IMG/VR virus record: IMGVR_UViG_3300016667_000429
Location: 1 to 61,672 of that record
DNA length: 61,672 nt
Direction: 5' to 3' (one strand)
Origin: a virus
Shown: piece after piece, positions 29,341 through 42,906 of the stretch
How positions within the stretch are numbered: the first letter of the stretch is position 1
How the letters are laid out: each line of letters starts with the position of its first letter
Translations under genes and position numbers: made by a program
Notes under the pieces: generated by a model
Seen by the model: only the letters and a program-made list of their open reading frames with translations
Databases searched by the model: none
Told to the model about the DNA's origin: nothing

Positions 29341-29970
29341 TCAGGCGAGCATCCTGCGAACCGTTACTTCGGTCACGCGCCCAATGATCCTTGCGCCGTC
29401 CTCGACGCGAAAGGTTGGGAACCGCGTGTCGTCGGCCACGAGCATATCGTCGCCGGCTTCGCGTATGTACTTGCGCAACACCGGCTCACCGGCCTTCGAT
29501 ACCTGCGCCAACACAACCTGACCGGGGCGCACCGAGTCGCCTTTGCTGACCACGCAATAACACCCGGTCGGGCAAGTGCTGGTCATGGCATCGCTTGACA
29601 CCAGCATGGCCGCTGCCGTGCCTGGGGGGTAGGCCACGGTCGTCTGTAACAGCTCAGTGGGAATGTTGAGTTGCCACTTTGCCAGAGCAGAGGGGGTAAC
29701 AACCGGCACAGTAAACAACGGCGGCTTGGCCGTGGGCTTGGCAGGATGCGGAGTTTCCTCGACGCCCAACAGCCAATCGGTCGTGACTTTAAACCATCGC
29801 GCTATGTCGGCCAGATCCTCGGCGCTGGGCTGCGTCTTGCCCGCTTCCCACAGGTTGACCGCAGACGGCGACACCTTCATGCGCTTGGCCACCTCGCGCT
29901 GCGTGACTGCCGGATGAAGCGCCTGCCGTGCGGCGCGCAGACGCTGGGCAAGAACGGGTTTCATGGTCAA
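29341..29970 (-). CDS. CI/LexA-type repressor (XRE HTH + S24 peptidase domain)
   Basis: N-terminal TQREVAKRMKVSPSAVNLWEAG HTH. C-terminal S24-like domain (SSDAM...GRV). Divergent from a Cro-like gene. Confidence 0.85.
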   Translation of the reverse strand: MTMKPVLAQRLRAARQALHPAVTQREVAKRMKVSPSAVNLWEAGKTQPSAEDLADIARWFKVTTDWLLGVEETPHPAKPTAKPPLFTVPVVTPSALAKWQLNIPTELLQTTVAYPPGTAAAMLVSSDAMTSTCPTGCYCVVSKGDSVRPGQVVLAQVSKAGEPVLRKYIREAGDDMLVADDTRFPTFRVEDGARIIGRVTEVTVRRMLA

Positions 29971-31074: not shown

Positions 31075-33561
31075 ATGGCAGACAAAATTGAGTCGCCGTA
31101 TGAGCGACGCGCCTACGCTTACATTGAGCGTGGATACTCCGTTATCCCCATCGCGCCGGGGACAAAGCGCCCCGGCCAGTGGTCGCAGGAACACGGCTGG
31201 CGCGGGATGTCCGATTGGGAGCGATTCGCCACCCGCCTGCCCACAGAGATTGAGCTGGCGCATTGGTACAAGTGGCCTGATGCTGGTATCGGATTGCTCA
31301 CCGGCAAACTGTCTGGCGTCGTCGCGCTGGATCGTGACTACGACACCAAAGGAACCGACGGCCTCGATGCGTTGATCCCGTACACGCCCGTGAAGAAGAA
31401 AGGGGCGAAGGGCTACACCGCTTTCTTCCGCTACTCCGGCGAGCGTTCGTGCAGCTTCAACATCAACAAGATGCGGGTGCTGGATGTGCTGTCGGACGGA
31501 CGGCAGACATTGATGCCAGGAACGGCTCACCCCGACGGACATACCTACATCTATCTGACCGAAGATTGCTTAGAGGATTTCGACCCGGATCAGTTGCCGC
31601 TGCTGCCTGCGGATTTCCTCGATCAAGTCGCCGCCATTCTCGCGCCGTACCAGACCGATGATGACAAGAAATACCAGCGCAAGACGATTGCCCTGCCCGA
31701 AAACTCCGGCGCGATCGACACCAGCCTGTCCATTCAGGGCGAGTATTTCAATGACCTCAAGCAACAAGCCCTGCAACGGCTGGATGATTGGGTTCCCAAG
31801 CTGATTCCCGCCTCCCGACGGGAGCGTGACGGATGGCGCTGCGTGGCAACGTGGCGAAACGTGACCAATTACAACGTCAGCATCCACCCCAAAGGCATCT
31901 TCGATTTCGGCGGCAACTACGGGATCAACGCCATCGACCTCGTGATGCTCGCCAACGGCATCAACTTCAACAAGGCCGTGGATCTGCTTCGGGACTGCAT
32001 TCCGATGAGCGATTCCGAACCGTTGACCATGACCGTCAATGGAGCGACCGCTCTTGCGCCCGCGCCGGCCATGCCAGCGCCGGCCTACGAACCGATCCAG
32101 CACCCGCACATCCTGCCCGAAAAACCGCCCGCGCCGCCCGTCGCCCCTCCGGTCAAGGCTGCGCCCGCCGTGATGCCGTGGCAGATTCCCAAGACCAGCA
32201 AGCCTGCGCCCGTGATGCTGCCGCCGTCCACCAGCATCGACGCCGCGCCCGCGCTGCCCGCGTTCCTGACGAACCCGCCAGGAATTTTGGGTGACATTGC
32301 CCGCTGGATTACAGCCACCGCGCCCAAGAGTCAGCCGGAGCTGTCGCTGGCCGCAGCGATTGCCCTGTGCGCGACCGTGATGGGGCGCTGCTACCGCAGT
32401 CAGTACGGCAACTTCACCAGCCTCTACCTTGTGATGGTTGCCAAGTCCACCGAGGGCAAGGAGCATCCGCAAGGCTGCGTGGAAAAGATCCTCTCTGCCG
32501 CCACCTTGACGCACCTGATCGGCGGCTCCGGGTACACCAGCTCTGGTGCGGTGTACTCGGCGCTACTGAAAGAGCCTTCCCATATCGCCACCATCGACGA
32601 AATGGGCAAGCTCCTGAAAGTCTCTCGCGCCAAAGGCCAAAGTCATACCGAGGCCGCGCTCGACAAGCTCGTGGAGGCTTTCGGGCGGCAGGATGGCGTG
32701 CTGCGCCCGCCGACCTACTCGACCATGACCCTTGCCCGTGGCGGCACGAACAACACGGATCGCGTTGTCCACAACCCTGCGATCACGCTTTTGGGTGCGA
32801 CCACGCCCGCGACCTTCTATGACAACCTGACCGACGATCTCGTGAAGGATGGCTTTCTTGGCCGCTGCCTCGTGATCGAGTCCAGCCAGCCGCGCCAACT
32901 CACCCGCTTCGTGGATCGTAATGACCCGCCCGCCAAGATCGTGGAGTGGTGCGCCGCCGTTCACGTTTCCAACGCCGCCGATGGCAACTTGGCCGGTTTG
33001 CTGCCCGCCGATGTGCCAGCCAAGACCATCGAGCTGCCGTTCGATGACGGTTGCCACCCGCTCATGGATGCGTTCGAGGCGCGTCTGAATGACGCCAAAG
33101 AAGCCAGTGAAGGCGAAGGGCTGGATGTTCTGTTAGGCCGCACGCTGGAAAAGGCCATGAAGCTGTCCATGATTGTCTGCAAGGCCGAAAACGCCGACAA
33201 CAAGGCCGTGATGCCGCACCACCTAGAGTGGGCAATTCAGTTCGTGAATCATTACGACAACGCTCTGGTGCGAGCGGTTCGTACCAAGCGCGTGACCAGC
33301 CAGACGGACGGCGACGTTAAAAAGGTGATCGAGTACGTCAGGCATTCGCGCAAGTACGTCGGAGACAAGAAGTTCGGCCATGTCCTCGCCGCTGGCGCAA
33401 TGCCGCACAGCAAACTGCTCAAGCTCATGAAGATGTCGGCCAAGCATTTCAAGGAAGTGATCGACACTGCTATCGAGTCCGGTGTCGTGATGCGAGCGCC
33501 CGGTGCGGAGTTCGGGTTGGGCGCAATGGAAGTCTATCGAGTAGGGGAGTTGGACGAATAA
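31075..33561 (+). CDS. replication protein: N-terminal primase-polymerase (AEP) domain + C-terminal DUF3987-type helicase-like domain
   Basis: GYSVIPIAPGTKRP...GVVALDRDYD...GTAHPDGHTY prim-pol pattern. Pro/Ala linker. C-terminal ...SSGAVYSALL...ATIDEMGKLL resembles DUF3987. Confidence 0.85.
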   Translation: MADKIESPYERRAYAYIERGYSVIPIAPGTKRPGQWSQEHGWRGMSDWERFATRLPTEIELAHWYKWPDAGIGLLTGKLSGVVALDRDYDTKGTDGLDALIPYTPVKKKGAKGYTAFFRYSGERSCSFNINKMRVLDVLSDGRQTLMPGTAHPDGHTYIYLTEDCLEDFDPDQLPLLPADFLDQVAAILAPYQTDDDKKYQRKTIALPENSGAIDTSLSIQGEYFNDLKQQALQRLDDWVPKLIPASRRERDGWRCVATWRNVTNYNVSIHPKGIFDFGGNYGINAIDLVMLANGINFNKAVDLLRDCIPMSDSEPLTMTVNGATALAPAPAMPAPAYEPIQHPHILPEKPPAPPVAPPVKAAPAVMPWQIPKTSKPAPVMLPPSTSIDAAPALPAFLTNPPGILGDIARWITATAPKSQPELSLAAAIALCATVMGRCYRSQYGNFTSLYLVMVAKSTEGKEHPQGCVEKILSAATLTHLIGGSGYTSSGAVYSALLKEPSHIATIDEMGKLLKVSRAKGQSHTEAALDKLVEAFGRQDGVLRPPTYSTMTLARGGTNNTDRVVHNPAITLLGATTPATFYDNLTDDLVKDGFLGRCLVIESSQPRQLTRFVDRNDPPAKIVEWCAAVHVSNAADGNLAGLLPADVPAKTIELPFDDGCHPLMDAFEARLNDAKEASEGEGLDVLLGRTLEKAMKLSMIVCKAENADNKAVMPHHLEWAIQFVNHYDNALVRAVRTKRVTSQTDGDVKKVIEYVRHSRKYVGDKKFGHVLAAGAMPHSKLLKLMKMSAKHFKEVIDTAIESGVVMRAPGAEFGLGAMEVYRVGELDE

Positions 33562-33563
33562 AA

Positions 33564-33583
33564 AAAGGGGCTTACGCCCCTTT
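33564..33583. terminator. bidirectional rho-independent terminator between convergent blocks
   Basis: AAAGGGGC-TTAC-GCCCCTTT, with an A-run on one side and a T-run on the other. Overlaps the last codons of the minus-strand gene. Confidence 0.6.
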
Positions 33584-33892
33584 GTCTTGCTTGTTTTCCT
33601 TGCGCCGCTTGTCCTCCTCTGGCGGTTTCTTCAGCGGGCGCTTGACGCCCTTCGGGTACGGATTGCGATTCTTTGCCCCCTTCGGACGACCGGGGGATCG
33701 TTCCTCGCCCTGCTTGGGAGCAACGTATCCCGGTGGGACAAGAATCGTGAAGCCGGGATCGATCATCCAGATGTTTGCCACGCGACTAGCAGGGCTGATG
33801 CGCCCCTGTCGGCAGAGCAGCCGCACCAGATAGCGCGGCAACCCCAACATCTCGGACACTTCCGCAATCGTGTAATACGGGTGTGCGTTCAT
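33572..33892 (-). CDS. HTH_17/excisionase-like DNA-binding protein with basic tail
   Basis: ATGA-coupled start at 33892. YYTIAEVSEMLGLPRYLVRLLCRQGRI. Lys/Arg/Pro-rich C-terminus. Confidence 0.6.
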   Translation of the reverse strand: MNAHPYYTIAEVSEMLGLPRYLVRLLCRQGRISPASRVANIWMIDPGFTILVPPGYVAPKQGEERSPGRPKGAKNRNPYPKGVKRPLKKPPEEDKRRKENKQDKGA

Positions 33893-33996
33893 AGGTAAAG
33901 AATGATAGCAACGTCCAGAGCGATGGAAACGACGGAAGCTAACGCAAGACCAAGCGCCACCCATACCAACAAAGTCTTTTCGTTGTCATCCATCAT
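33889..33996 (-). CDS. 35-aa membrane micro-ORF
   Basis: ATGA overlaps at both ends. MMDDNEKTLLVWVALGLALASVVSIALDVAIILYL. Confidence 0.5.
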   Translation of the reverse strand: MMDDNEKTLLVWVALGLALASVVSIALDVAIILYL

Positions 33997-34265
33997 TTCC
34001 TCCCAGTGATCTCGGACAACAGTTCAACAACGTCGCGCTCGAACACGGGCGCACCATCGAATACGCCGCTTTCCAGACCTCGTGAAAGCAACTCATACAG
34101 CTCTGGTGCGCCAGCGATCAGCCGCGCATTGGCAAGGCATTGCCGCTTGTCGATGCTGGAATAGACCAGAAAGCAGTCGGCAATCGCGTACCCCTCGTGC
34201 GTCATAACGTGGCCTGGGGTGTCAGGGTCGAGTAGCCACGGGGCAGGTGTGTGCAGTGATTTCAT
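33993..34265 (-). CDS. hypothetical protein, HTPxPW...NA.LIA.APEL family (paralogue of 36946..37212)
   Basis: ATGA-coupled start at 34265. Motifs shared with 36946..37212. Confidence 0.6.
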   Translation of the reverse strand: MKSLHTPAPWLLDPDTPGHVMTHEGYAIADCFLVYSSIDKRQCLANARLIAGAPELYELLSRGLESGVFDGAPVFERDVVELLSEITGRK

Positions 34266-34459
34266 TTGTTGGTTTTCTCCTTGAGTGACTTCGGGATCTT
34301 CGGCTTCGGACACCAGCCGAGACAGTCATCGCTCCACTGCCCCACGATCAACACGCCGCCCGGATTCAGCAACAGCATATTGACGTTGCGTGGGGGCGGT
34401 TCAACGGCTGGATCTCGGAAGTAAAGCTGGTCGGTAGTGAGTTGGTCGGGTTCGCTCAT
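34262..34459 (-). CDS. hypothetical protein
   Basis: 65-aa ORF, ATGA-coupled at both ends. Confidence 0.55.
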   Translation of the reverse strand: MSEPDQLTTDQLYFRDPAVEPPPRNVNMLLLNPGGVLIVGQWSDDCLGWCPKPKIPKSLKEKTNK

Positions 34460-34845
34460 GTGTTCTTTTCCTTCAGCTTGGCTTCGATGGCGCGGGCAAA
34501 TTCCAGCCAGTCAGCAGTCATGGCTCCACAAGACAAAGCGACTTGGCTCTTTTCCTCATCCGTCAGCGATTGCCATTCGCGCTGTGGTGGGGCGGTGTAG
34601 AGTGGTTGAACTTCAATGTTGGAAAACTTTGTCTCTGGGGTAGGACAGCGATACATTAGCGTCCAATCGCGCATAGGATCAATGCTTCTAATGCGCCACG
34701 CCACCGGCTCCACGCTTGGTTCAGGCTGTGCAAGTCGGGCGCGGAGGAGTTCGATTGCCTCCTCTTCCAATTCATCCATTGCGGCGTGTAGCAATAACGC
34801 ATCCAGCACCTGCTGCGCCTCCTCGCGGGTTAGTTTGATGGTCAT
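34456..34845 (-). CDS. hypothetical protein, LRARLAQPEP / YTAPPQREWQ family (paralogue of 36160..36753)
   Basis: Shares a 33-bp identical DNA block and the N- and C-terminal motifs with 36160..36753. Confidence 0.6.
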   Translation of the reverse strand: MTIKLTREEAQQVLDALLLHAAMDELEEEAIELLRARLAQPEPSVEPVAWRIRSIDPMRDWTLMYRCPTPETKFSNIEVQPLYTAPPQREWQSLTDEEKSQVALSCGAMTADWLEFARAIEAKLKEKNT

Positions 34846-35006
34846 TGGAACCTCTGCGGCAAGTTTTCTATCGTTACCCTAAGTGCTTCTTCTAAAGCGT
34901 ATGCAATCGCCGCGCGGTCTTCGTCTGCGGTATCTGGATCAAGGTTTTTGACTACAACGGATACACCATCCTCGTCATGGTTTACTTCGATTGTGTAGGT
35001 TGTCAT
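34842..35006 (-). CDS. 54-aa acidic micro-ORF
   Basis: ATGA overlaps at both ends. MTTYTIEVNHDEDGVSVVVKNLDPDTADEDRAAIAYALEEAL.... Confidence 0.5.
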   Translation of the reverse strand: MTTYTIEVNHDEDGVSVVVKNLDPDTADEDRAAIAYALEEALRVTIENLPQRFQ

Positions 35007-35350
35007 TGTTGTTCTCCTGTAGCTTTGGCGATGGCGGTGTTCACCTTCTTTTCGACTTGCGTAATAACGTGCCGCATATTACTTGCGCTGATAGCGTCCA
35101 GCGTCATGCCGTTTTCCGTGAGAACCTTGTGCGCTTTGTCGAAGTCAGGTTCAGGAAATATCGTTACTGGATATGCTCTTGCCCATGCGCTGAGTTCTTG
35201 CAGCGTCTCCACCAACTCAGCATTCACCTCATGCAGTCGGCGTAGCTCTGCTGCGGCTTTTTCAAGCAATGCAAAATGTTCCGGACTAAAGCGACGCAAT
35301 CCACTAAAAGCCTCAGCCAGCCTCAATGCTTCAGGTTGTTTGTCAGTCAT
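35003..35350 (-). CDS. hypothetical protein, MTDKQPEALRLA family (paralogue of 37212..37445)
   Basis: The start at 35350 is preceded by GAGGAGAG. Shares N-terminal, central (AAAELRRLHEVNAEL) and C-terminal (AIAKATGEQQ) motifs with its paralogue. Confidence 0.6.
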   Translation of the reverse strand: MTDKQPEALRLAEAFSGLRRFSPEHFALLEKAAAELRRLHEVNAELVETLQELSAWARAYPVTIFPEPDFDKAHKVLTENGMTLDAISASNMRHVITQVEKKVNTAIAKATGEQQ

Positions 35351-35360
35351 TGTTCTCTCC

Positions 35361-35561
35361 TCACAAATCAGGATCAATCCAAAACCCGTCACCAAAGATC
35401 AGTGGGATCGGGTCGTAGTCAGGTCCCTCTGCTTTGGCAATCTGCTTTTGCAGCGCGGTGCATTTCTCGTGCAGCTCCATCACCTTGGAGTAAACCTCTT
35501 GCCCTTCCTTCAGCAGCCGGTTGTGCTCTTTCTTCAAATCGTTGATTTCTTTTGGCGTCAT
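35361..35561 (-). CDS. hypothetical coiled-coil protein
   Basis: 66-aa ORF with an ATGA-coupled start. Confidence 0.55.
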   Translation of the reverse strand: MTPKEINDLKKEHNRLLKEGQEVYSKVMELHEKCTALQKQIAKAEGPDYDPIPLIFGDGFWIDPDL

Positions 35562-35686
35562 TGCGGTTTCTCCTCTTCGTCGAACGTCATAGTTTCTGGG
35601 TGCGGCACAGGGTCATGCACGATCACGCCTTCGTCGTCTGCTTCAATCAGTCTGCCGCAGATCACGCAGTAGTAGCCGTCGCTCAT
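35558..35686 (-). CDS. 42-aa micro-ORF (CxxC)
   Basis: ATGA overlaps at both ends. MSDGYYCVICGRLIEADDEGVIVHDPVPHPETMTFDEEEKPQ. Confidence 0.5.
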   Translation of the reverse strand: MSDGYYCVICGRLIEADDEGVIVHDPVPHPETMTFDEEEKPQ

Positions 35687-35922
35687 TTCGATTTCTCCGG
35701 TGGATGAAGGAAGTTCAGCACTGCCGAATAGACGCGAAACCGACCATAGTTGTCGCCAACCTCATTCGCCCACCCTGCATAGCGCATCTCGACTTCGCAC
35801 TGCTGTAATAGCTCGTATGCTTCACTGAGTTCCTTTGCGCCCCAGTCAGGGTTGAATTCGGTTTCGCGTTCGCACCCAGACTGTTTACAAAACCCGCCGC
35901 AGCTTGAGCATTGTCTATCCAT
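35683..35922 (-). CDS. hypothetical Cys-rich protein
   Basis: The start at 35922 (MDRQCSSCGGFCKQSGCE...) has GAGGAG upstream. 8-nt overlap with the upstream gene. Confidence 0.5.
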   Translation of the reverse strand: MDRQCSSCGGFCKQSGCERETEFNPDWGAKELSEAYELLQQCEVEMRYAGWANEVGDNYGRFRVYSAVLNFLHPPEKSK

Positions 35923-36163
35923 GGTTTTTCTCCTCAAGCAACGCGCCACACAGGTCGCGCGCTGCGTCGTTGTTACCAGCAAAGACAACCACGTCTAATT
36001 CTTCCGGTTCAGGCTGCGCTAGTGCTGCGCGGAGTGCTTCATATAAAACAGCTATTGCTTTGTGTTGAAGTTGTAATTGTTCTTTACCGCCAAAATCTTC
36101 AATTATCGGCAGACCATGCTCCAACGCATTCAGCGCCATCTGCATCAGTTCTCGATCATTCAT
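35915..36163 (-). CDS. hypothetical protein
   Basis: ATGA-coupled start at 36163. Contains an ALAQPEPEE motif related to the LRARLAQPEP family. Confidence 0.55.
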   Translation of the reverse strand: MNDRELMQMALNALEHGLPIIEDFGGKEQLQLQHKAIAVLYEALRAALAQPEPEELDVVVFAGNNDAARDLCGALLEEKNHG

Positions 36164-36753
36164 GTGTTCTTCTCCTTTAGTTTGGCTTCGACTGCCGCGA
36201 CAACATTGCCAGTGCCCCAACACTCCGAGATTTCATCTCCCGTCAGACCTTGCCATTCGCGCTGTGGTGGGGCGGTGTAGAGATTGGACGGAATAACCTC
36301 CAAAGCAAGCAACGCAGTTTCAATTTCTTCCATATTTGGAATGAACCCATAATGCGCGTCAGGGTCGATGCTGTGATAAACGCGAAGCAAAAACGCCGGG
36401 TCAATAATCCAATCTTCCCCATGCTTTGGCGCATGACGCGGGAAACGTACCGAACATGTCACCGGCTCCGGTTTGCAGAACGATTCTGCCGAATCTGCCG
36501 AATGTGTTGCCGAATGTGGGCTGGTATAGAGCGGGACAGTGTAGGTCTTTGTCTGGTACGCGCTGAAGTCTCGGCTGAAGTCAGTAATTAAGCCTCGCAC
36601 AGTCCACGCCACCGGCTCCTGCTCGGGCTGCGCGAGTCGGGCGCGGAGTAGTTCGCTTGCTTCTCGGCGCGGCGTACCGACACTATTTCTTTCAATAACA
36701 TCCAGCACCTGCTGCATTTCGCTGCGCGTGAGTGTGATTGTGTTGTTAGTCAT
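36160..36753 (-). CDS. hypothetical protein, LRARLAQPEQ / YTAPPQREWQ family
   Basis: 197-aa ORF, paralogue of 34456..34845 with an inserted middle region. Confidence 0.6.
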   Translation of the reverse strand: MTNNTITLTRSEMQQVLDVIERNSVGTPRREASELLRARLAQPEQEPVAWTVRGLITDFSRDFSAYQTKTYTVPLYTSPHSATHSADSAESFCKPEPVTCSVRFPRHAPKHGEDWIIDPAFLLRVYHSIDPDAHYGFIPNMEEIETALLALEVIPSNLYTAPPQREWQGLTGDEISECWGTGNVVAAVEAKLKEKNT

Positions 36754-36760
36754 GCTCGCC

Positions 36761-36949
36761 TCATTTAGTGAACCCGCTTTGTACGCAGGTATACTTAACT
36801 GACTTAGTTGTTAGCTGAACCATCTTAGCCGCTGCTTTACCTGCGGCTTCGCAATGCTGCTCAGTAGCAAACACGGTGGTTGTCATGCTATTGCTGTCTT
36901 TTTCAGACAAAACACCGGCGTGTATAAACAGAATCAATACCCAAGTCAT
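36761..36949 (-). CDS. small protein with N-terminal hydrophobic (signal-like) segment
   Basis: MTWVLILFIHAGVLS.... ATGA-coupled start. Confidence 0.5.
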   Translation of the reverse strand: MTWVLILFIHAGVLSEKDSNSMTTTVFATEQHCEAAGKAAAKMVQLTTKSVKYTCVQSGFTK

Positions 36950-37212
36950 TGTTGTTCTCCTGTAGCTTTGGCGATGGCGGTGCGTATTTCAGCCTCTAGC
37001 TCGTCCGCAAATCCGCGCTCTTGGTTGATATTGCCAATGCAATTTTCCAGCGCTTCCAACAAAACAGGAGCAGCGGCTATCAGATGGGCGTCCTGAATTA
37101 CACGTGAAATGCGCTTGTCATCGTGAAACAAAGTCTCATTGTTTGCTCCTACCACTGTGACATGAGTCGCGGTTTCTCGGATCGTCCACGGCCCCGGCGT
37201 GTGTTTGTTCAT
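36946..37212 (-). CDS. hypothetical protein, HTPGPW...AHLIAAAPVL family with AIAKATGEQQ tail
   Basis: Paralogue of 33993..34265. Its 3' end is a 37-bp block identical to 35003..35039. Confidence 0.6.
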   Translation of the reverse strand: MNKHTPGPWTIRETATHVTVVGANNETLFHDDKRISRVIQDAHLIAAAPVLLEALENCIGNINQERGFADELEAEIRTAIAKATGEQQ

Positions 37213-37445
37213 TATTGTTCTCCTGTAGCTTTGGCGATGGCTTCCTGTGCAATCGTGTTGCCTATGCTGTTACCGTATCTATCGCCATTCCCAAGTCGAG
37301 CCAGCTTATCCAGAGCCGCCAGCAACTCAGCATTCACCTCATGCAAGCGGCGTAGTTCGGCGGCGGCAGCGTCTGTATCCGCGTATCCGTAAAGTTCCTC
37401 AAGCGCATCAGCCAGCCGCAAGGCTTCGGGTTGTTTGTCAGTCAT
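37212..37445 (-). CDS. hypothetical protein, MTDKQPEALRLA family
   Basis: Paralogue of 35003..35350. TAATG junction with the next gene. Confidence 0.6.
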   Translation of the reverse strand: MTDKQPEALRLADALEELYGYADTDAAAAELRRLHEVNAELLAALDKLARLGNGDRYGNSIGNTIAQEAIAKATGEQ

Positions 37446-37717
37446 TGTTCTCTCCTTGCGCGGATAGCTATTGCAGCTACTTTGTAATAGTTGGACAGCC
37501 TGTCTTTAGCTGCCATCTCATCCAATACTTTCGCACACGCCTCATTCTCATCCTTGCGACCTGCTTCGTATACTGCGGCGCATATTTGCCCTACGATTCC
37601 TTCAATGTTTACCCACGATCCATTGGAATGCGTGACAACTAAACCGCCGTGAATCCTATGAGGCTCTAACCCCGCGTTCCGCGCCCATGCGATGACTTGC
37701 TCTTGTGTTGGTTTCAT
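37442..37717 (-). CDS. hypothetical protein
   Basis: 91-aa ORF, ATGA-coupled. Confidence 0.55.
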   Translation of the reverse strand: MKPTQEQVIAWARNAGLEPHRIHGGLVVTHSNGSWVNIEGIVGQICAAVYEAGRKDENEACAKVLDEMAAKDRLSNYYKVAAIAIRARREQ

Positions 37718-37923
37718 TCCGTTCCCCTCCGTGACCGTACATCGGCCACCATCTCGTAATTGCCCATCATCAGCGGCTTCAGCGGCTTCAATTGAATCGT
37801 CACCACCGCGTCATACGCCCGCGCCATCTTGATGAGATAGTCGGCGTGGGCTTGCAGTGACAGCAGATCCATCTCGCGCCGCGATTCTTCAACCGTCTTG
37901 AACTTCACAATCTCGGCGCTCAT
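37714..37923 (-). CDS. hypothetical protein
   Basis: 69-aa ORF, ATGA-coupled. Confidence 0.55.
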   Translation of the reverse strand: MSAEIVKFKTVEESRREMDLLSLQAHADYLIKMARAYDAVVTIQLKPLKPLMMGNYEMVADVRSRRGTE

Positions 37924-38207
37924 TTCTTTTGCTCCGTGTCGATCAATTGAAACGATTCCATCGGGTAGGTGTACGCATCGCCGTCGTCATAGCGAACGTG
38001 GATCTCGTTCGCTAGTACGCCCCAACACCCGAACAACGTGGTGCTGTTCGGTGCGCTGGCGTACATCCGGCGCAGCGCCGGCCTGTCAGGGCAGGCTTCG
38101 GCGGTCAGCACGATCTTGCCCCCGGCCTTGTTCTTCCATTCCAGCCACTTCTCGGCGTGCGCGGTGCTGGCCGTGACCAGCAGCGCCATCAAAAGCAATC
38201 GCTTCAT
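37920..38207 (-). CDS. secreted/periplasmic protein (cleavable signal peptide)
   Basis: MKRLLLMALLVTASTAHA/EK signal-peptide pattern. Two Cys in the mature part. Confidence 0.6.
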   Translation of the reverse strand: MKRLLLMALLVTASTAHAEKWLEWKNKAGGKIVLTAEACPDRPALRRMYASAPNSTTLFGCWGVLANEIHVRYDDGDAYTYPMESFQLIDTEQKK

Positions 38208-38422
38208 AGCTCCCCCTCTTTTTCCTGTTCGTAATGTGTCTTGCTCAGTGACAAAACGTGAGCGAAGTTGATCCCCTGTAAGTCACAAAAGTGACGCAAG
38301 TCGGATAGAACGTCGATCACGTTTTCCTCGCTGGCAGCATCAAATGGCAGCTTCAGCAATTGCTCGGTATAAATCTGTACCGTGCATTGCGCCCGGTATG
38401 CGCGTTCGCGGTTTGTCATCAT
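38204..38422 (-). CDS. hypothetical protein
   Basis: 72-aa ORF, ATGA-coupled. Confidence 0.55.
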   Translation of the reverse strand: MMTNRERAYRAQCTVQIYTEQLLKLPFDAASEENVIDVLSDLRHFCDLQGINFAHVLSLSKTHYEQEKEGEL

Positions 38423-38709
38423 TCTTCGCCCCCCAGGAATCGCAAACCCTTCGGCGTGACCGTGAGCCGGTTAGCCCGCTTGTCGCGCTCGGACGGCTTC
38501 ACATCCACCAGCTTCGCCTCGATCAGCTCGTGAATGGCGTGATGCAGCGTGGCAGGACTGCCAACGCCTTCAGCCAGCGCCAGCCGCTTCAATTCGTTCT
38601 GACTGCACCCCGGCTTCTCGAACCGGCGGCACAGGTCGAGCAGGATTTCCGCGTGAATGGAAATACCAGCGGCTTGCCGCCGCTGGAAATGCTTGAATGG
38701 TGTGGTCAT
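38419..38709 (-). CDS. MarR-like winged-helix regulator
   Basis: CSQNELKRLALAEGVGSPATLHHAIHELIEAKLVDVKPSERDKRANRLTVTPKG matches the wHTH plus wing pattern. Confidence 0.55.
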   Translation of the reverse strand: MTTPFKHFQRRQAAGISIHAEILLDLCRRFEKPGCSQNELKRLALAEGVGSPATLHHAIHELIEAKLVDVKPSERDKRANRLTVTPKGLRFLGGEE

Positions 38710-39245
38710 TTCTTCGCCCCCTTCTTCTTGTCCGGCCAGCCAGCTTTCACAAGATCAGTAATCAGCCCCGTGACCGCCGGAACCGTCCGATCAAGCTTTA
38801 CCGCCGGGTCAGGCAGGTACTTCGCCAGCTCCGGCATAGCGTCACGCGCGGCCTTGACCGTGGTGAACGCCTTGATCGTTGACCATAGCTTTCGCTCCAG
38901 CTCCCGGCGCTCGTCTTTTTGCTTCCTGTCAGCCGCGTTCAGCTCGGTCAGCTTCTTGATGATCTTGGCATCCGTGATTCGGTAGTAGTTGCTATGCCCT
39001 TCGTTCGGCACGACAAAGCAGTTCGTGGTGTTGTAGTGGCTGTGGTCGTCAGCCCACCGAACCGTGTGCTGGTGAAAGTAATGGCGCGTGTCCGGGTTCT
39101 TGTAGAGGCGCACCACCGCAGCCGGGGCAATGTCGAGCAAATACTCTTGGGCAACCTTCTGTATCTGTTCGGTGTAGTCGGTCTTGGGTGTGTCAGCGAG
39201 TACGGCGCGAACGAATGCGTCGCGTAGGTTTTCGGTCAGTCTCAT
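38706..39245 (-). CDS. hypothetical protein
   Basis: 179-aa ORF, ATGA-coupled. Confidence 0.6.
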   Translation of the reverse strand: MRLTENLRDAFVRAVLADTPKTDYTEQIQKVAQEYLLDIAPAAVVRLYKNPDTRHYFHQHTVRWADDHSHYNTTNCFVVPNEGHSNYYRITDAKIIKKLTELNAADRKQKDERRELERKLWSTIKAFTTVKAARDAMPELAKYLPDPAVKLDRTVPAVTGLITDLVKAGWPDKKKGAKK

Positions 39246-39649
39246 GCTTGGCTCCTTTCAATGGTGATAGTCCCCGGTCGGGTAGATGTCAGCGTGATGC
39301 TGTCGCCAGCCGCGCCCAACCGTTCCAGCAGCTTCGTGCTGTTGATGTCAACAATCGGACGCTCCGGCTTGCCCGCAATGCGCCGCGCCCCGCCCTCGGT
39401 TTTGCTGATGACGTAGCGCCCGCTTTGCATATCGATCAGGTCGTACCTGTCGCCGTGAGCAAAGCCAGCGTCGAGCAGGAACTTGCCCTCGATCCAGAGG
39501 CGCAGGTTGCCCCGGTTCAGGCATACCTTGCGGGTCGCGGTAACGGTCGTGAGCGCAGCTACGCGCTCGCGGTGTCGAGTGAATACCCCGTCGTCAACCC
39601 CTTTCGGGGTTGAGCGCAGGGTTCGGTCAGCCTGTGCCATGTCGATCAT
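39242..39649 (-). CDS. hypothetical protein with AbrB/SymE-like swapped-hairpin segments
   Basis: ATGA-coupled start at 39649. LRLWIEGKFLLDAGFAHGDRYDLI...GRYVI resembles the SymE/AbrB-type pattern (weak recall). Confidence 0.5.
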   Translation of the reverse strand: MIDMAQADRTLRSTPKGVDDGVFTRHRERVAALTTVTATRKVCLNRGNLRLWIEGKFLLDAGFAHGDRYDLIDMQSGRYVISKTEGGARRIAGKPERPIVDINSTKLLERLGAAGDSITLTSTRPGTITIERSQA

Positions 39650-39978
39650 GCGGTCGCTCCTTTGTTCTGGTAGAAGGCTCGCGCCTCTTGAATCAGGAAT
39701 TGCAGGTCGTTCACTGCCGCCTGATGCTGGACTTCCACGTTCTTCTCGGTGCAACGGGACTTCGATAGCGTCACGCTCTTGTGATAGTCCTGATAGATCG
39801 CAAAGGTGAACCCAAAATCGGTTTTGACTGCAACGGATGCACTCGTCACCAGCCCTCGGTCGCTCTTGCGCGTGGTCAGTTGCAAAATGCGCTCGCCCTT
39901 CTTGATCTCGTCGCCCTCCAGCGGCACAACGGTTTCGGCTTTCCATCCATCACGGCCTTTGTAGATTTGCGTTCTCAT
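39646..39978 (-). CDS. hypothetical protein
   Basis: 110-aa ORF. AAGGAGCGAAGC precedes the ATG. First cistron downstream of hammerhead copy A. Confidence 0.6.
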   Translation of the reverse strand: MRTQIYKGRDGWKAETVVPLEGDEIKKGERILQLTTRKSDRGLVTSASVAVKTDFGFTFAIYQDYHKSVTLSKSRCTEKNVEVQHQAAVNDLQFLIQEARAFYQNKGATA

Positions 39979-40002
39979 GCTTCGCTCCTTCGTTCAGTAG
40001 TT

Positions 40003-40056
40003 GGACTCATCAGTACCGGCTTGACCGGCAGACCGGGGCGTACCCCGGTTTCGTCC
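40003..40056 (-). ncRNA. hammerhead ribozyme motif, type II topology (copy A)
   Basis: Minus-strand RNA: GGAC-GAA-ACCGGGG(UACG)CCCCGGU-C/UGCCGGU(CAA)GCCGGUA-CUGAUGA-GUCC. All invariant core positions and three helices are present. Lies in an intercistronic spacer. Confidence 0.75.
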
Positions 40057-40229
40057 TAGTCGGTGTTCTGGTCGCCTTCCTCGGCCAGTTCACCGTCGTT
40101 GCTGTCCAGCGCCACAAGGTTGTTATCCAGCCCAAAGTGGTACTTCACTTCCTCGTGCAGCTCGTCCCGCGCCGCTTCCAGCGTTTCGCCACGCACCCAA
40201 ACCACGCATTCAAATCGGTATAAATTCAT
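40056..40229 (-). CDS. 57-aa acidic micro-ORF
   Basis: GAGGAA SD. MNLYRFECVVWVRGETLEAARDELHEEV.... Its UAG stop abuts ribozyme stem II. Confidence 0.5.
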   Translation of the reverse strand: MNLYRFECVVWVRGETLEAARDELHEEVKYHFGLDNNLVALDSNDGELAEEGDQNTD

Positions 40230-40248
40230 GTTGAGAATTCCTCAATCT

Positions 40249-40515
40249 CTACGACAAAAAAACACCGCCGAAGTCGCGGTACGTGCGAATCGGTGTGCGC
40301 TCCTGATAGACCTCCTCGAACTTGACCGGCTCGCCCCGGTTCTTCTTCGCCTCCATGAACAGTGCCGCGTCGCAATCTTCTTCAAGGTAGGCCATGTTTT
40401 TGTGCTGATAGCTGTACCGGCTAATGCGATTGGTCAGGCCAAGACGCACCACCTCTGCCAGCGGAACCTCCAGCCAGCCGTGGCCGGGGTCAGAGATGAA
40501 TCGGTAGGTATTCAT
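40249..40515 (-). CDS. hypothetical protein (YRFISDPGHGWLEV family)
   Basis: ATGA-coupled start at 40515. Confidence 0.6.
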   Translation of the reverse strand: MNTYRFISDPGHGWLEVPLAEVVRLGLTNRISRYSYQHKNMAYLEEDCDAALFMEAKKNRGEPVKFEEVYQERTPIRTYRDFGGVFLS

Positions 40516-41144
40516 GCTGTCACCTCCTGTTCGGTCTTTTCGATCACCGGCTGGCGTTCCGCACCATGCACCCATACCGGCACGTTGAATTGCTCGTAGC
40601 CGCGCATCGCCATCACCACGCCGATAAAGTCAGGCACTTCGATGTTGACAAGGCACGTTCCCTGTCCACGCTGGCGAACCCACACCTTGCCGCCGTCCAG
40701 TGCCGCCGACACTTCCGCGAACCGCACCAGCAGGTACGGGTCAATCGCGCTCGGCGCGTCCGGCTCGATCAGCAGATCGCCGTTCTTGGGGGTCACGCGG
40801 CTCGTGTCGGGGAAAACACCGTCCACGGCCTTCATGGTCAGGTTGATACCCACGGCCGCAGCCTTGACCACGCCCTCGGACACATAGAACTCCACCAGCT
40901 CGTCAGCTTGCCGCTTCGTCCCCAACAGCGGCTTCAGCGAATCGCGCTCCAGAATCACCTCCGCTTGCGGCTTCGGCTCGGTCGAGATACGCAGCATTCC
41001 GAGCAGGTGTCCGTCAGTCGCCTCGATGATCGTGCCGAACTGCCCTTGCCGAACGTGCAGCCCGTTCAGGTAATACCGAACATCCTTCGTCGCCGCCAGC
41101 ACCAGCATGGCCTTCAGTTGCCCGCGCATAATCGAAAATTCCAT
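40512..41144 (-). CDS. two-domain DNA polymerase III beta (sliding clamp)-like protein
   Basis: KDVRYYLNGL...EATDGHLLG...VDGVFPD..RV.P...GVVMAMRG parallels DnaN domain II-III landmarks (RYYLNG, ATDGHRL, DG.FPDY..V.P, VVMPMRL; recalled from E. coli DnaN). Confidence 0.6.
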   Translation of the reverse strand: MEFSIMRGQLKAMLVLAATKDVRYYLNGLHVRQGQFGTIIEATDGHLLGMLRISTEPKPQAEVILERDSLKPLLGTKRQADELVEFYVSEGVVKAAAVGINLTMKAVDGVFPDTSRVTPKNGDLLIEPDAPSAIDPYLLVRFAEVSAALDGGKVWVRQRGQGTCLVNIEVPDFIGVVMAMRGYEQFNVPVWVHGAERQPVIEKTEQEVTA

Positions 41145-41155
41145 CGTTCGCTCCT

Positions 41156-41389
41156 TCAGTCGTCAAAGTCAGGGGAAACAGTAAAACCCATGTCACGCAG
41201 CCCCCGCGCTACGTCACCGGGCAGACAAGCCACGCCGTCATAGTCCACCAGCGATCCGTCCTCGAACCACAGACCGCCGCCGCACTCGTCGCCGTAGTCC
41301 TCATGCTCGAAGTACCCGTACTGGGCAGTCGAATCGACCATCACCTCGAACTTGCCCACCCTCGTTACCTTGTCAAATGCGTATTTCAT
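41156..41389 (-). CDS. hypothetical acidic protein
   Basis: The start at 41389 has AAGGGG upstream. Confidence 0.5.
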   Translation of the reverse strand: MKYAFDKVTRVGKFEVMVDSTAQYGYFEHEDYGDECGGGLWFEDGSLVDYDGVACLPGDVARGLRDMGFTVSPDFDD

Positions 41390-41399
41390 AGCCAGCCCC

Positions 41400-41735
41400 T
41401 TAAACGTCATACCGATGATGAACAATTACCAGACAAGCAATTGTGCTGCCCGGATATTGGACGGCAGACACCGCATGGCAGTAGTAGCTGCCAGCCGCAC
41501 CACCCTCGCGGTAAACCTGCGGCAGTAGCCATTGCTCGGCCTGTTCCGGCGCCAGCTCGGCATTGCGGCAGGTCAGCAGCACCACGCCGTCCGTACCGCG
41601 ACCGTTCGGAAGGTCGATGTTGCCGACCGTTTCCATGTGAATCTCAACCTCGCGGATTGGGCAGTCGTCGGACTCGCAGACCGGGTTATCCGGCTCCATG
41701 TCGCGCCCGCAGAAGGCGCAGGTGCAGTTAGTCAT
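41400..41735 (-). CDS. hypothetical protein with N-terminal Cys cluster
   Basis: ATGA-coupled start at 41735. MTNCTCAFCGRDMEPDNPVCESDDCP. Confidence 0.55.
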   Translation of the reverse strand: MTNCTCAFCGRDMEPDNPVCESDDCPIREVEIHMETVGNIDLPNGRGTDGVVLLTCRNAELAPEQAEQWLLPQVYREGGAAGSYYCHAVSAVQYPGSTIACLVIVHHRYDV

Positions 41736-41860
41736 ACAGCCCTCCATTCCTTTGTCACAGGGTTGAATCCAGCCCGCAGCAGGGCATCAAATGCCCGCTG
41801 GCTCAAAGGCTGGAACCGCTTGCTGGCCGCGTAAGCGACGTATTCGGCGTAAGTTGGCAT
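41732..41860 (-). CDS. 42-aa micro-ORF
   Basis: GGGTGAGG precedes the ATG. MPTYAEYVAYAASKRFQPLSQRAFDALLRAGFNPVTKEWRAV. Confidence 0.45.
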   Translation of the reverse strand: MPTYAEYVAYAASKRFQPLSQRAFDALLRAGFNPVTKEWRAV

Positions 41861-41862
41861 CC

Positions 41863-41955
41863 TCACCCCCACACCAAAGCCACCACAAACCCGACCGCAG
41901 CAACCGCCGCGATCGTCCAGTCGATGTCCCACTCGAATCCGTCCCGGTCGTTCAT
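41863..41955 (-). CDS. 30-aa membrane micro-ORF
   Basis: ATGA-coupled start. MNDRDGFEWDIDWTIAAVAAVGFVVALVWG. Confidence 0.45.
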   Translation of the reverse strand: MNDRDGFEWDIDWTIAAVAAVGFVVALVWG

Positions 41956-42197
41956 GCCGCCACCTCGTCAGCCTTCGGCACGACACAAGACCGGCCTGAC
42001 ATGATCGCCACCGTCCACCACACCGGCATCTCGAAACCAGCCGCCACAAGGCCAGCCATCGCGCCGACAAAGAACTCCACCTCCAGCTCGCGGTACTTCT
42101 TCGTGCCAGCCTTCAGGCCAGCATTGGCAGCTCGCGCCACCCATTGCCGTTCCACGTTGTCCTGCATTTCCTTCGTTATGTGTCCCATGTGCGCCAT
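41952..42197 (-). CDS. 81-aa membrane protein
   Basis: The start at 42197 is preceded by AAGGGAGCGAACG. Hydrophobic FFVGAMAGLVAAGFEMPVWWTVAIM. First cistron downstream of hammerhead copy B. Confidence 0.55.
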   Translation of the reverse strand: MAHMGHITKEMQDNVERQWVARAANAGLKAGTKKYRELEVEFFVGAMAGLVAAGFEMPVWWTVAIMSGRSCVVPKADEVAA

Positions 42198-42236
42198 CGT
42201 TCGCTCCCTTGTTCGATGGCGGGCGCTACCCGCCGT

Positions 42237-42288
42237 TGCCTCATCAGTGCCGGTGCGACCGGCAGACCCGCCGCAGCGGGTTTCGGCA
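42237..42288 (-). ncRNA. hammerhead ribozyme motif, type II topology (copy B)
   Basis: Minus-strand RNA: UGCC-GAA-ACCCGC(UGCG)GCGGGU-C/UGCCGGU(CGC)ACCGGCA-CUGAUGA-GGCA. Same core as copy A, with compensatory changes in all three stems. Confidence 0.75.
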
Positions 42289-42672
42289 TCAGGCACGTTG
42301 GATCGAGACAGCCGTTCCGAACTGGCTTACCGCTCCGTACGTCATGCCGCCCTCCAGCGCCGCCACATCCGGCTGGCATGGCAGCATCCCGCCAACCATC
42401 TCGCCGTAATACGCAATCGCGTCCTCAGCATCCTCAAAAGACCGAACCAGCAGACCGTCGGTGTCATGCGTCTTGACCACAAAGCCCGCCGCCGCCACAG
42501 GCACACCCAGATAGGCCGCAGCATTGGCGATCGCTTGCTCAATCGTCTTTGCGTCGCCAATCGCCTCCAGCACATCGCCGTCCGAGTAGCACTCCACCAG
42601 CGTGTCCCAGCCGTTTTCGTAGTTACGCATCGCGTGTTGTCGTACCGCCTGAATCATTGTCTGTTCGTCCAT
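42289..42672 (-). CDS. hypothetical protein (first gene of the 9-kb early-left operon)
   Basis: 127-aa ORF with GAGGAG SD. N-terminal NYENGWDTLVECYSD motif. Confidence 0.6.
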   Translation of the reverse strand: MDEQTMIQAVRQHAMRNYENGWDTLVECYSDGDVLEAIGDAKTIEQAIANAAAYLGVPVAAAGFVVKTHDTDGLLVRSFEDAEDAIAYYGEMVGGMLPCQPDVAALEGGMTYGAVSQFGTAVSIQRA

Positions 42673-42688
42673 CGTTCGCTCCTCAAGT

Positions 42689-42727
42689 CGGTTTTAAATA
42701 TTGAGCGCCGCTCAACGGTTTTAAATA
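42689..42727. promoter_or_regulatory. direct repeat - palindrome - direct repeat element (CGGTTTTAAATA / TTGAGCGCCGCTCAA / CGGTTTTAAATA)
   Basis: 12-bp repeats at 42689..42700 and 42716..42727 flank a 15-bp palindrome. Lies 17 bp upstream of the first early-left ATG. Confidence 0.45.
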
Positions 42728-42906
42728 TATACGCGCGCGAAGTTATTTAAAAGGGGTTTCGTCAAATATTTTTGCCCGAACCGTTGTACGGACACCACAC
42801 GTTGCGTTCTTGGCAAAATTCTCCGGTTTTTCCCGTTTTCGGAGAATCGGGAGAGGATTTAAGAAGCATTGAGAAATCAGGTGTTTTAAGGAATATATAT
42901 AATAAA

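Follow-up and report, generated by a model that had tools for sequence, protein, structure and literature searches.

Two predicted type II hammerhead ribozymes in a leftward phage operon of 32 chained genes

The virus record IMGVR_UViG_3300016667_000429 of IMG/VR (61,672 base pairs (bp), analysed here over its whole length and called the window) carries on its minus strand, at 33572..42672, a tight array of 32 chained genes, numbered g1 to g32 in the direction of reading, that is interrupted in two places by type II hammerhead motifs, HH1 and HH2. Judged as a whole, the following account of this block appears probable to us: it would be an operon, read leftward, whose small genes have accessory or replication-associated roles, in a phage with a P22-type portal gene, and the two hammerheads would cut its polycistronic transcript into three RNAs of 1, 8 and 23 genes (segments A, B and C). 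A preliminary description, made from the sequence alone, had proposed three RNAs of one, about 10 and about 24 genes; its figure for segment A holds, while those for segments B and C must be lowered to 8 and 23.

Two ribozyme motifs in a chain of overlapping genes

The only gaps longer than 20 nucleotides (nt) in the gene chain lie at 42198..42288 (91 nt) and 39979..40055 (77 nt) and each, as the preliminary description had it, is occupied by a hammerhead motif. Both motifs are complete and of type II, with the invariant core and the permuted topology of this class. HH1 (copy B of the motif) extends over 42237..42288 and HH2 (copy A) over 40003..40056, both on the sense (minus) strand of a co-directional array of 32 open reading frames (ORFs). 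Each displays the CUGAUGA...GAA core, the A15.1-U16.1 pair, C17, the G10.1-C11.1 pair and an open stem II of 4 bp, while loops cap stems I and III, in agreement with the Rfam alignments. HH1 combines a stem II made of UGCC/GGCA, a stem III of 5 bp plus the A15.1-U16.1 pair under a UGCG loop, and a stem I of 6 bp with a 5-nt loop. HH2 is built in the same way, with GGAC/GUCC in stem II, 6 bp plus the A-U pair under a UACG loop in stem III, and again 6 bp and a 5-nt loop in stem I. C17 is found where it had been placed beforehand, at 42265 in HH1 and at 40031 in HH2, the predicted self-cleavage sites being 42264..42265 and 40030..40031 (after C42265 and C40031, respectively), and the UNCG type that had been announced for the stem III loops is that of both copies.

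Folded in isolation, HH1 and HH2 adopt the three-way junction both as their minimum-energy and as their centroid structure (z ~ -2.4). The Rfam model RF02276, with a gathering threshold of 37 bits, recognizes HH1 (match 42288..42230) at 40.2 bits, with E 9.6e-5 over the whole window. HH2 falls under that threshold, as discussed below, and it is filed as a member of the family because its core, fold, orthology and covariation all agree with it. Other RNA families gave chance-level matches only in the window at E <= 1, and a model of our own (R1) retrieved no further or degenerate hammerhead copies there.

HH1 starts directly after the stop codon of g1, and HH2 overlaps the stop codon of g9 by one base, its own first; cutting is predicted 24 nt (HH1) and 25 nt (HH2) past these upstream stops, and cutting would leave a leader of 67 nt to g2 and one of 52 nt to g10. 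An extra GC hairpin of 6-7 bp (42218..42234, minus strand) is inserted between HH1 and the Shine-Dalgarno motif of g2. A start of g2 at the GTG at 42296, through the HH1 spacer, was discarded: the frame is formally open, but it lacks a Shine-Dalgarno motif, its content in guanine and cytosine (GC) is highest at the second codon position and it would encode a low-complexity peptide.

The chain itself was established by walking the minus strand from the ATG at 42672 to the stop codon at 33572, with each ATGA overlap checked base by base. Its 32 ORFs occupy 97.6% of 42672..33572, when ATG-initiated ORFs of at least 30 amino acids (aa) cover only ~62% of sequence simulated with a Markov-1 model, and most of them possess a GGAG-type Shine-Dalgarno motif and a coding-like pattern of GC over codon positions. 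Among the 31 junctions 21 are ATGA overlaps (-4 nt), eight occur once each (-11, -8, -1, +2, +7, +10, +11 and +19) and two are the long spacers (+91 and +77). The tetramer ATGA is mildly enriched on the operon strand (65 observed versus 52 +/- 7 expected; 16 on the other strand). It had been proposed that about 35 genes were linked by more than 20 consecutive ATGA junctions: the chain is there and so is the number of junctions, but the genes are 32 and the longest unbroken run of ATGA junctions is 8. By contrast, the six micro-ORFs that had been added to the chain were all recovered exactly: 33996..33889 (35 aa), 35006..34842 (54 aa) and 35686..35558 (42 aa) in segment C, and 40229..40056 (57 aa), 41860..41732 (42 aa) and 41955..41863 (30 aa) in segment B, all on the minus strand. 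The coding-like GC pattern is present in all six and a clear GGAG-type Shine-Dalgarno motif in five, 41732..41860 having a weaker G-rich stretch only, and a homologue of the 30-aa product (57% identity) is called as a gene in the related contig L086. A 130-aa form of g32 (start at 33964) was rejected, since its start lacks a Shine-Dalgarno motif and its GC pattern is not that of a coding sequence.

Repeated initiation signals are a further feature of this chain. At g1, g2 and g7 one exact 13-mer, GGAGCGAACGATG, runs from the Shine-Dalgarno motif through the spacer to the start codon (42670..42682, 42195..42207 and 41142..41154, minus strand), and a near copy precedes g10; none of these four cistrons is coupled through ATGA. 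Elsewhere in the operon an identical 20-nt junction, CCAAAGCTACAGGAGAACAA, is found three times, ending at 37215, 36952 and 35009.

Conservation of the hammerheads among relatives

Relatives of the clamp-like protein of segment B (210 aa, Pfam DNA_pol3_beta_2; 41144..40512, minus strand) share 51-67% identity with it and come from short metagenome contigs; a single-protein pattern scan of IMG/VR found no close relatives. Type II hammerheads on the sense strand are present in seven of these contigs (L084, L085, L086, L193, L195, L196 and L197). In four of them (L085, L193, L195 and L196) the hammerhead stands directly upstream of orthologues of g10 (53-56% aa identity) and g11 (71-82%), and HH2 therefore marks an orthologous border. 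Its nucleotide identity is 93% to the orthologous copies and 94% to the copy of L197, compared with 64-79% for g7, g10 and g11, or 67-79% in the four contigs just named, and its differences among relatives are in loops or compensatory. Purifying selection is stronger on the hammerhead motifs than on the genes that flank them.

Across the eight hammerheads of this phage group 99.2% of the cells pair, and 7 of the 17 pairs have changed on both sides, in all three helices; none of 500 shuffles reaches the observed covariation and controls with slid positions pair at 26-43%. The unpaired core (CUGAUGA, GAA and C17) is invariant in the eight copies, the free N7 position excepted. That the core stays unchanged while the relatives diverge argues for selection on catalysis and not on the hairpins alone. 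Stem III is capped in all relatives by hyperstable UNCG or GNRA loops.

The layout of the window is also met on a larger scale. With a strict pattern for this stem I subfamily, matches were obtained in 106 IMG/VR contigs, several of which have 2-4 copies. A co-directional ORF ends at most 40 nt upstream in 94 of 110 motifs, mostly between -2 and +5 nt from the start of the motif, and the next ORF begins a median 21 nt after it; as a rule, therefore, a stop codon is followed by the hammerhead, then by a Shine-Dalgarno motif and a start codon. A denser version of the same layout is seen at L273:4360-5495, where four type II hammerheads within 1.1 kilobases (kb) flank single small genes, one of which is a g11 homologue.

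RNAs of another kind are found in the same operon of relatives. They match C4 antisense RNA (71.7 bits) or sRNA-Xcc1 (62-63 bits) at L083:2311-2397, L193:7608-7694 and L196:704-790, the one in L083 shortly before a gene of the pRha family; RNAs of this kind are absent from the window.

From one transcript to three RNAs, and the alternatives

How might the operon work? Most cistrons would be translationally coupled through their ATGA overlaps, and each ribozyme would fold during transcription and cleave itself after C17, at C42265 and C40031. Cleavage by hammerheads yields a 2',3'-cyclic phosphate and a 5'-OH end. The upstream pieces would thus end 24-25 nt past a stop codon, in the UNCG hairpin of stem III and with a cyclic phosphate, and the downstream pieces would open on a 5'-OH followed by the hairpin of stem I; in segment B the GC hairpin at 42218..42234 would come as a second 5' hairpin. 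Neither 3' exonucleases nor polyadenylation act well on ends that combine a hairpin and a cyclic phosphate, and a 5'-OH followed by a hairpin is a poor substrate for RNase E, an enzyme stimulated by 5'-monophosphates. A strong Shine-Dalgarno motif, GGAGCGAA, would then be available downstream of each cut, 52-67 nt from the new 5' end, and the downstream RNAs would carry the same type of initiation signal as g1 and g7, so that the ribozymes coincide with the breaks in translational coupling. In this way g2 and g10 would gain a defined leader, independent of upstream events, and the likely effect would be that their decay and the initiation of their translation become uncoupled from what lies upstream. 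What the analysis shows is the motifs themselves, their position, conservation and covariation; that they cleave in vivo, that the primary transcript is a single one and that stability or translation is affected is what we infer.

Neither promoter-like nor terminator-like sites were found in the two spacers, and three pieces are therefore the natural consequence of cutting one transcript. Within the operon there is one further promoter-like match on the minus strand, near its end, and the promoter-like count is below shuffle expectation. Terminator-like matches (17, versus 11.2 +/- 3.9 in shuffles) are not clearly above it.

Several observations weigh against this account. HH2 (match 40056..39995) scores 30.1 bits, below the gathering threshold, with E 1.8e-4 when 251 nt are searched and 0.043 over the whole window, a low score that we ascribe to its short stem II and to the missing consensus of its tail; and when HH2 is folded with its flanks the 4-bp stem II disappears from the centroid structure. 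A pseudoknot between loop I and the 3' tail was found important for fast cleavage at low Mg2+ (PMC3088659); most type II members have it, though it is not obligatory. The pairing available here amounts at most to 4 bp in HH1, including a G-U pair and competing with a local hairpin, and to 3 bp in HH2. In 98 members of the short-loop subfamily, pairing of at least 4 bp between loop I and tail has a frequency of 0.32, not much above the 0.24 +/- 0.035 with permuted tails, and clear cases are confined to the long-loop subtype; this pseudoknot is not supported as the tertiary clamp of HH1 and HH2. No orthologue of HH1 was found in the relatives reached, which lack g1 to g4, and its closest look-alike (94%, in L132) stands amid unrelated genes. 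In 50 distant IMG/VR phages that carry the clamp gene no type II hammerhead was found at E <= 0.01 (a blank that does not prove absence), and the ribozymes would therefore be dispensable for this gene set. Finally, a terminator-like hairpin of 5-7 bp followed by U7 (40255..40282, minus strand) is located within the 3'-terminal part of g8, ~200 nt upstream of HH2; g9, whose start is preceded by a Shine-Dalgarno motif, begins 19 nt further on. The hairpin is only terminator-like, and it could be a partial stop or attenuator, ending some transcripts before HH2 is reached.

The position of the motifs invites another idea, which we consider unlikely: the hammerheads would be translation-gated joints between cassettes, where cleavage is not constitutive and reports the translation of the upstream cistron. 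The motif starts 0-3 nt after the upstream stop codon or overlaps it, so that a ribosome in the act of terminating would sit on the GAA box and on the 5' strand of stem II. Folding and cutting could occur only once this ribosome has left, and a cut 24-25 nt past the stop would leave the upstream messenger long enough for normal termination. As a joint, the conserved 54-nt element would be the site of exchange for the variable genes that precede the g10-g11 pair, itself conserved.

In a second alternative the hammerheads persist mainly as conserved borders of shuffled cassettes, whether recombination anchors or mobile passengers, cleavage being incidental and of little effect on expression. On either side of the variable segment the clamp gene and the block formed by the hammerhead, g10 and g11 are conserved, whereas the segment itself contains no gene in L086 and L197, ~570 nt of non-homologous sequence in L193, L195 and L196, two different genes in L085, and g8 and g9 in the window; the look-alike in L132 and the 50 clamp phages devoid of hammerheads point in the same direction. 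Homology at the DNA level alone, however, would require neither the compensatory changes that preserve pairing in all three helices nor invariant core bases, and the motif always has the sense orientation, with a stop codon before it and a Shine-Dalgarno motif after it. We regard this alternative as distinctly unlikely; it is compatible with a ribozyme role.

It is just as doubtful, in our opinion, that the 9 kb are not transcribed as one unit, the units being defined by starts or stops inside the block, among them the hairpin and U7 of 40282..40255, and the hammerheads only trimming the leaders of RNAs made separately. This hairpin, so close to HH2, would fit such a scheme, and segment C has features that suggest a separately acquired block. 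Its GC content is 52-53% at 34-38 kb, versus ~59% elsewhere, and paralogous modules lie in 34456..37445 (minus strand): the first ~50 residues of g18 and g26 share 57% identity, g21 and g28 share ~46%, and g19 ends in a C-terminal tail similar to the one of g26. Yet the counts of promoter-like and terminator-like sites given above argue against internal units, and ATGA overlaps tie the genes together at junctions almost throughout.

In a last alternative, very unlikely, the folded motifs would be cut too slowly inside cells to matter, and their stable hairpins would act, uncleaved, as insulators or nuclease barriers between translational units. In its favour are the slow cleavage of minimal hammerheads when Mg2+ is at physiological levels (PMC3088659), an open stem II of just 4 bp, the lack of a convincing loop I/tail pseudoknot and the hyperstable stem III loops of all relatives. 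Hairpin barriers, however, would not need the unpaired core that all eight copies keep, and type II hammerheads in similar contexts do cleave in vivo (PMC8782182).

Genome setting, gene products and known systems

The record has direct terminal repeats and represents a complete genome. To the right of 43 kb the plus strand codes for a T4-type large terminase, a P22-type portal and the major capsid protein; the operon is divergent from this block. It is read leftward from an island of non-coding sequence rich in adenine and thymine (AT-rich) at ~42.7-43.3 kb, and converges on a prim-pol/DUF3987 gene (31075..33561, plus strand), which flanks it on the other side. A bidirectional intrinsic terminator with an 8-bp GC stem and its T-run on the minus strand (33564..33583) overlaps the stop codon of g32 and is common to the operon and to the prim-pol gene. 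For initiation, the candidate is a sigma-70-like promoter, TTTAAA-16-TATATT (42724..42751, minus strand), a consensus match only, ~50 nt upstream of the ATG of g1. Between its -10 box and the Shine-Dalgarno motif of g1 lies a 15-nt palindrome, TTGAGCG G CGCTCAA (42701..42715), a possible operator. The block had been named "early-left" in the preliminary description. This name is not supported, since a CI-like repressor (HTH_3 and Peptidase_S24; 29341..29970) is separated from the operon by the rightward prim-pol gene, and reading starts in the AT-rich island at ~42.7 kb; the operon is therefore not the one adjacent to the CI/Cro switch, and the label is only a guess on timing.

Searches of the operon proteins against Pfam, PHROGs and PADLOC returned almost nothing beyond the clamp-like protein, Nmad5, HTH_17 and a weak MarR match. 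Segment A consists of g1 (42289..42672, minus strand), a protein of 127 aa with a weak, sub-threshold match to Jag_N. The coding part of segment B (40056..42197, minus strand) comprises g2 to g9, among them the clamp-like gene; the best PHROGs match of its product is phrog_3007, annotated "RusA-like Holliday junction resolvase" (4.5e-24), a label that is probably a mis-naming. Segment C, with g10 to g32 (33572..39978, minus strand), has matches in g11 (an MraZ/AbrB-like model), g12 (Nmad5), g13 (weakly MarR-like) and g32 (HTH_17).

The product of g11 (39242..39649, minus strand) belongs to a family of ~100-aa proteins without a Pfam entry, made of at least 96 clusters, some of them from Ruegeria genomes; homologues are encoded at L262:5992-6336 and L273:4800-5222, among other places, and no relatives were found in reference genomes. 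An AlphaFold model has a predicted local distance difference test value of ~97 over residues 35-135. Its best match is MraZ (1n0e_A; Z 6.9, root-mean-square deviation 2.8, 88 residues aligned), followed by swapped-hairpin barrels of the B3, AbrB, SpoVT and MazE types, and a Foldseek comparison with the PDB gave no match at E <= 0.001. With Z < 8 the model therefore suggests a fold class alone, and we tentatively propose that g11 may be a DNA-binding regulator. Type II hammerheads adjoin the close orthologues of g11 and 2 of 16 distant homologues, a proportion that led us to discard an obligatory association between family and ribozyme.

Long runs of small, mostly unknown genes joined by ATGA, between the replication and the late modules, are typical of the nin-type regions of lambdoid and P22-like phages. 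The operon of the window has this architecture and this position, and genes that neighbour it in relatives match Pfam Phage_P22_NinX and Phage_P22_Y8K6; Nin-family matches were not found among the genes of the window itself at the thresholds used. Unlike nin-type regions, the operon is transcribed away from the late block, converges on a replication gene and carries ribozymes. A parallel may also be drawn with synthetic insulators of the RiboJ type, in which a self-cleaving ribozyme and a hairpin are placed before the ribosome-binding site. The succession of ribozyme, extra hairpin and Shine-Dalgarno motif after HH1 would likewise standardize the 5' leader of the next gene; the element here is natural, and the likeness resides in the order of its parts. 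With the RF02276 family, the two copies share the core, the permuted topology and the consensus UGCCGG...CCGGYA of stem I, HH1 being above the gathering threshold. They depart from it in the score of HH2, in a 5-nt loop I and in the lack of clear pairing with the 3' tail.

The closest precedent is found in the first natural type II hammerheads, described by Perreault et al. in 2011 (PMC3088659). There, multiple hammerheads flank genes or short gene blocks in prophages, the clusters cleave in vitro and in Escherichia coli, and processing of long phage RNAs into messengers the length of an operon or of a gene was proposed (PMC3088659), a hypothesis identical to that of the preliminary description. 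As in those clusters, the hammerheads of the window are co-oriented, occupy intergenic gaps of a single phage operon and are flanked by genes that vary between genomes. By contrast with them, there are only two copies, which split a 32-gene chain unequally (1, 8 and 23) and do not flank single genes, and both are of the short-loop form without a convincing pseudoknot. It is further known that both cleavage products of three type II hammerheads were captured from Desulfovibrio cells (Olzog et al., 2021; PMC8782182). The Desulfovibrio vulgaris hammerheads seen by cyPhyRNA-seq are likewise of type II and near hypothetical or phage-like genes; they concern another organism and other genes, and the study is silent on any effect on expression (PMC8782182). 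In their review of the field, Weinberg, Weinberg and Hammann (2019) gave the stability and translation hypothesis while calling it unproven, and found the roles of bacterial and phage hammerheads "largely elusive" (PMC6765202).

The arrangement is thus not new in kind, and the window adds another example of the layout known since 2011. What this phage offers is a tidy test case, not a new principle: its genome is complete, its ribozymes are just two and stand at the only breaks in translational coupling, and one of them, HH2, has been kept at the same border while the proteins around it diverged to ~55% identity. Conservation of this sort argues that the element is needed rather than decorative, and it points to g10 and g11 as the genes in which an active core may be expected to influence expression.

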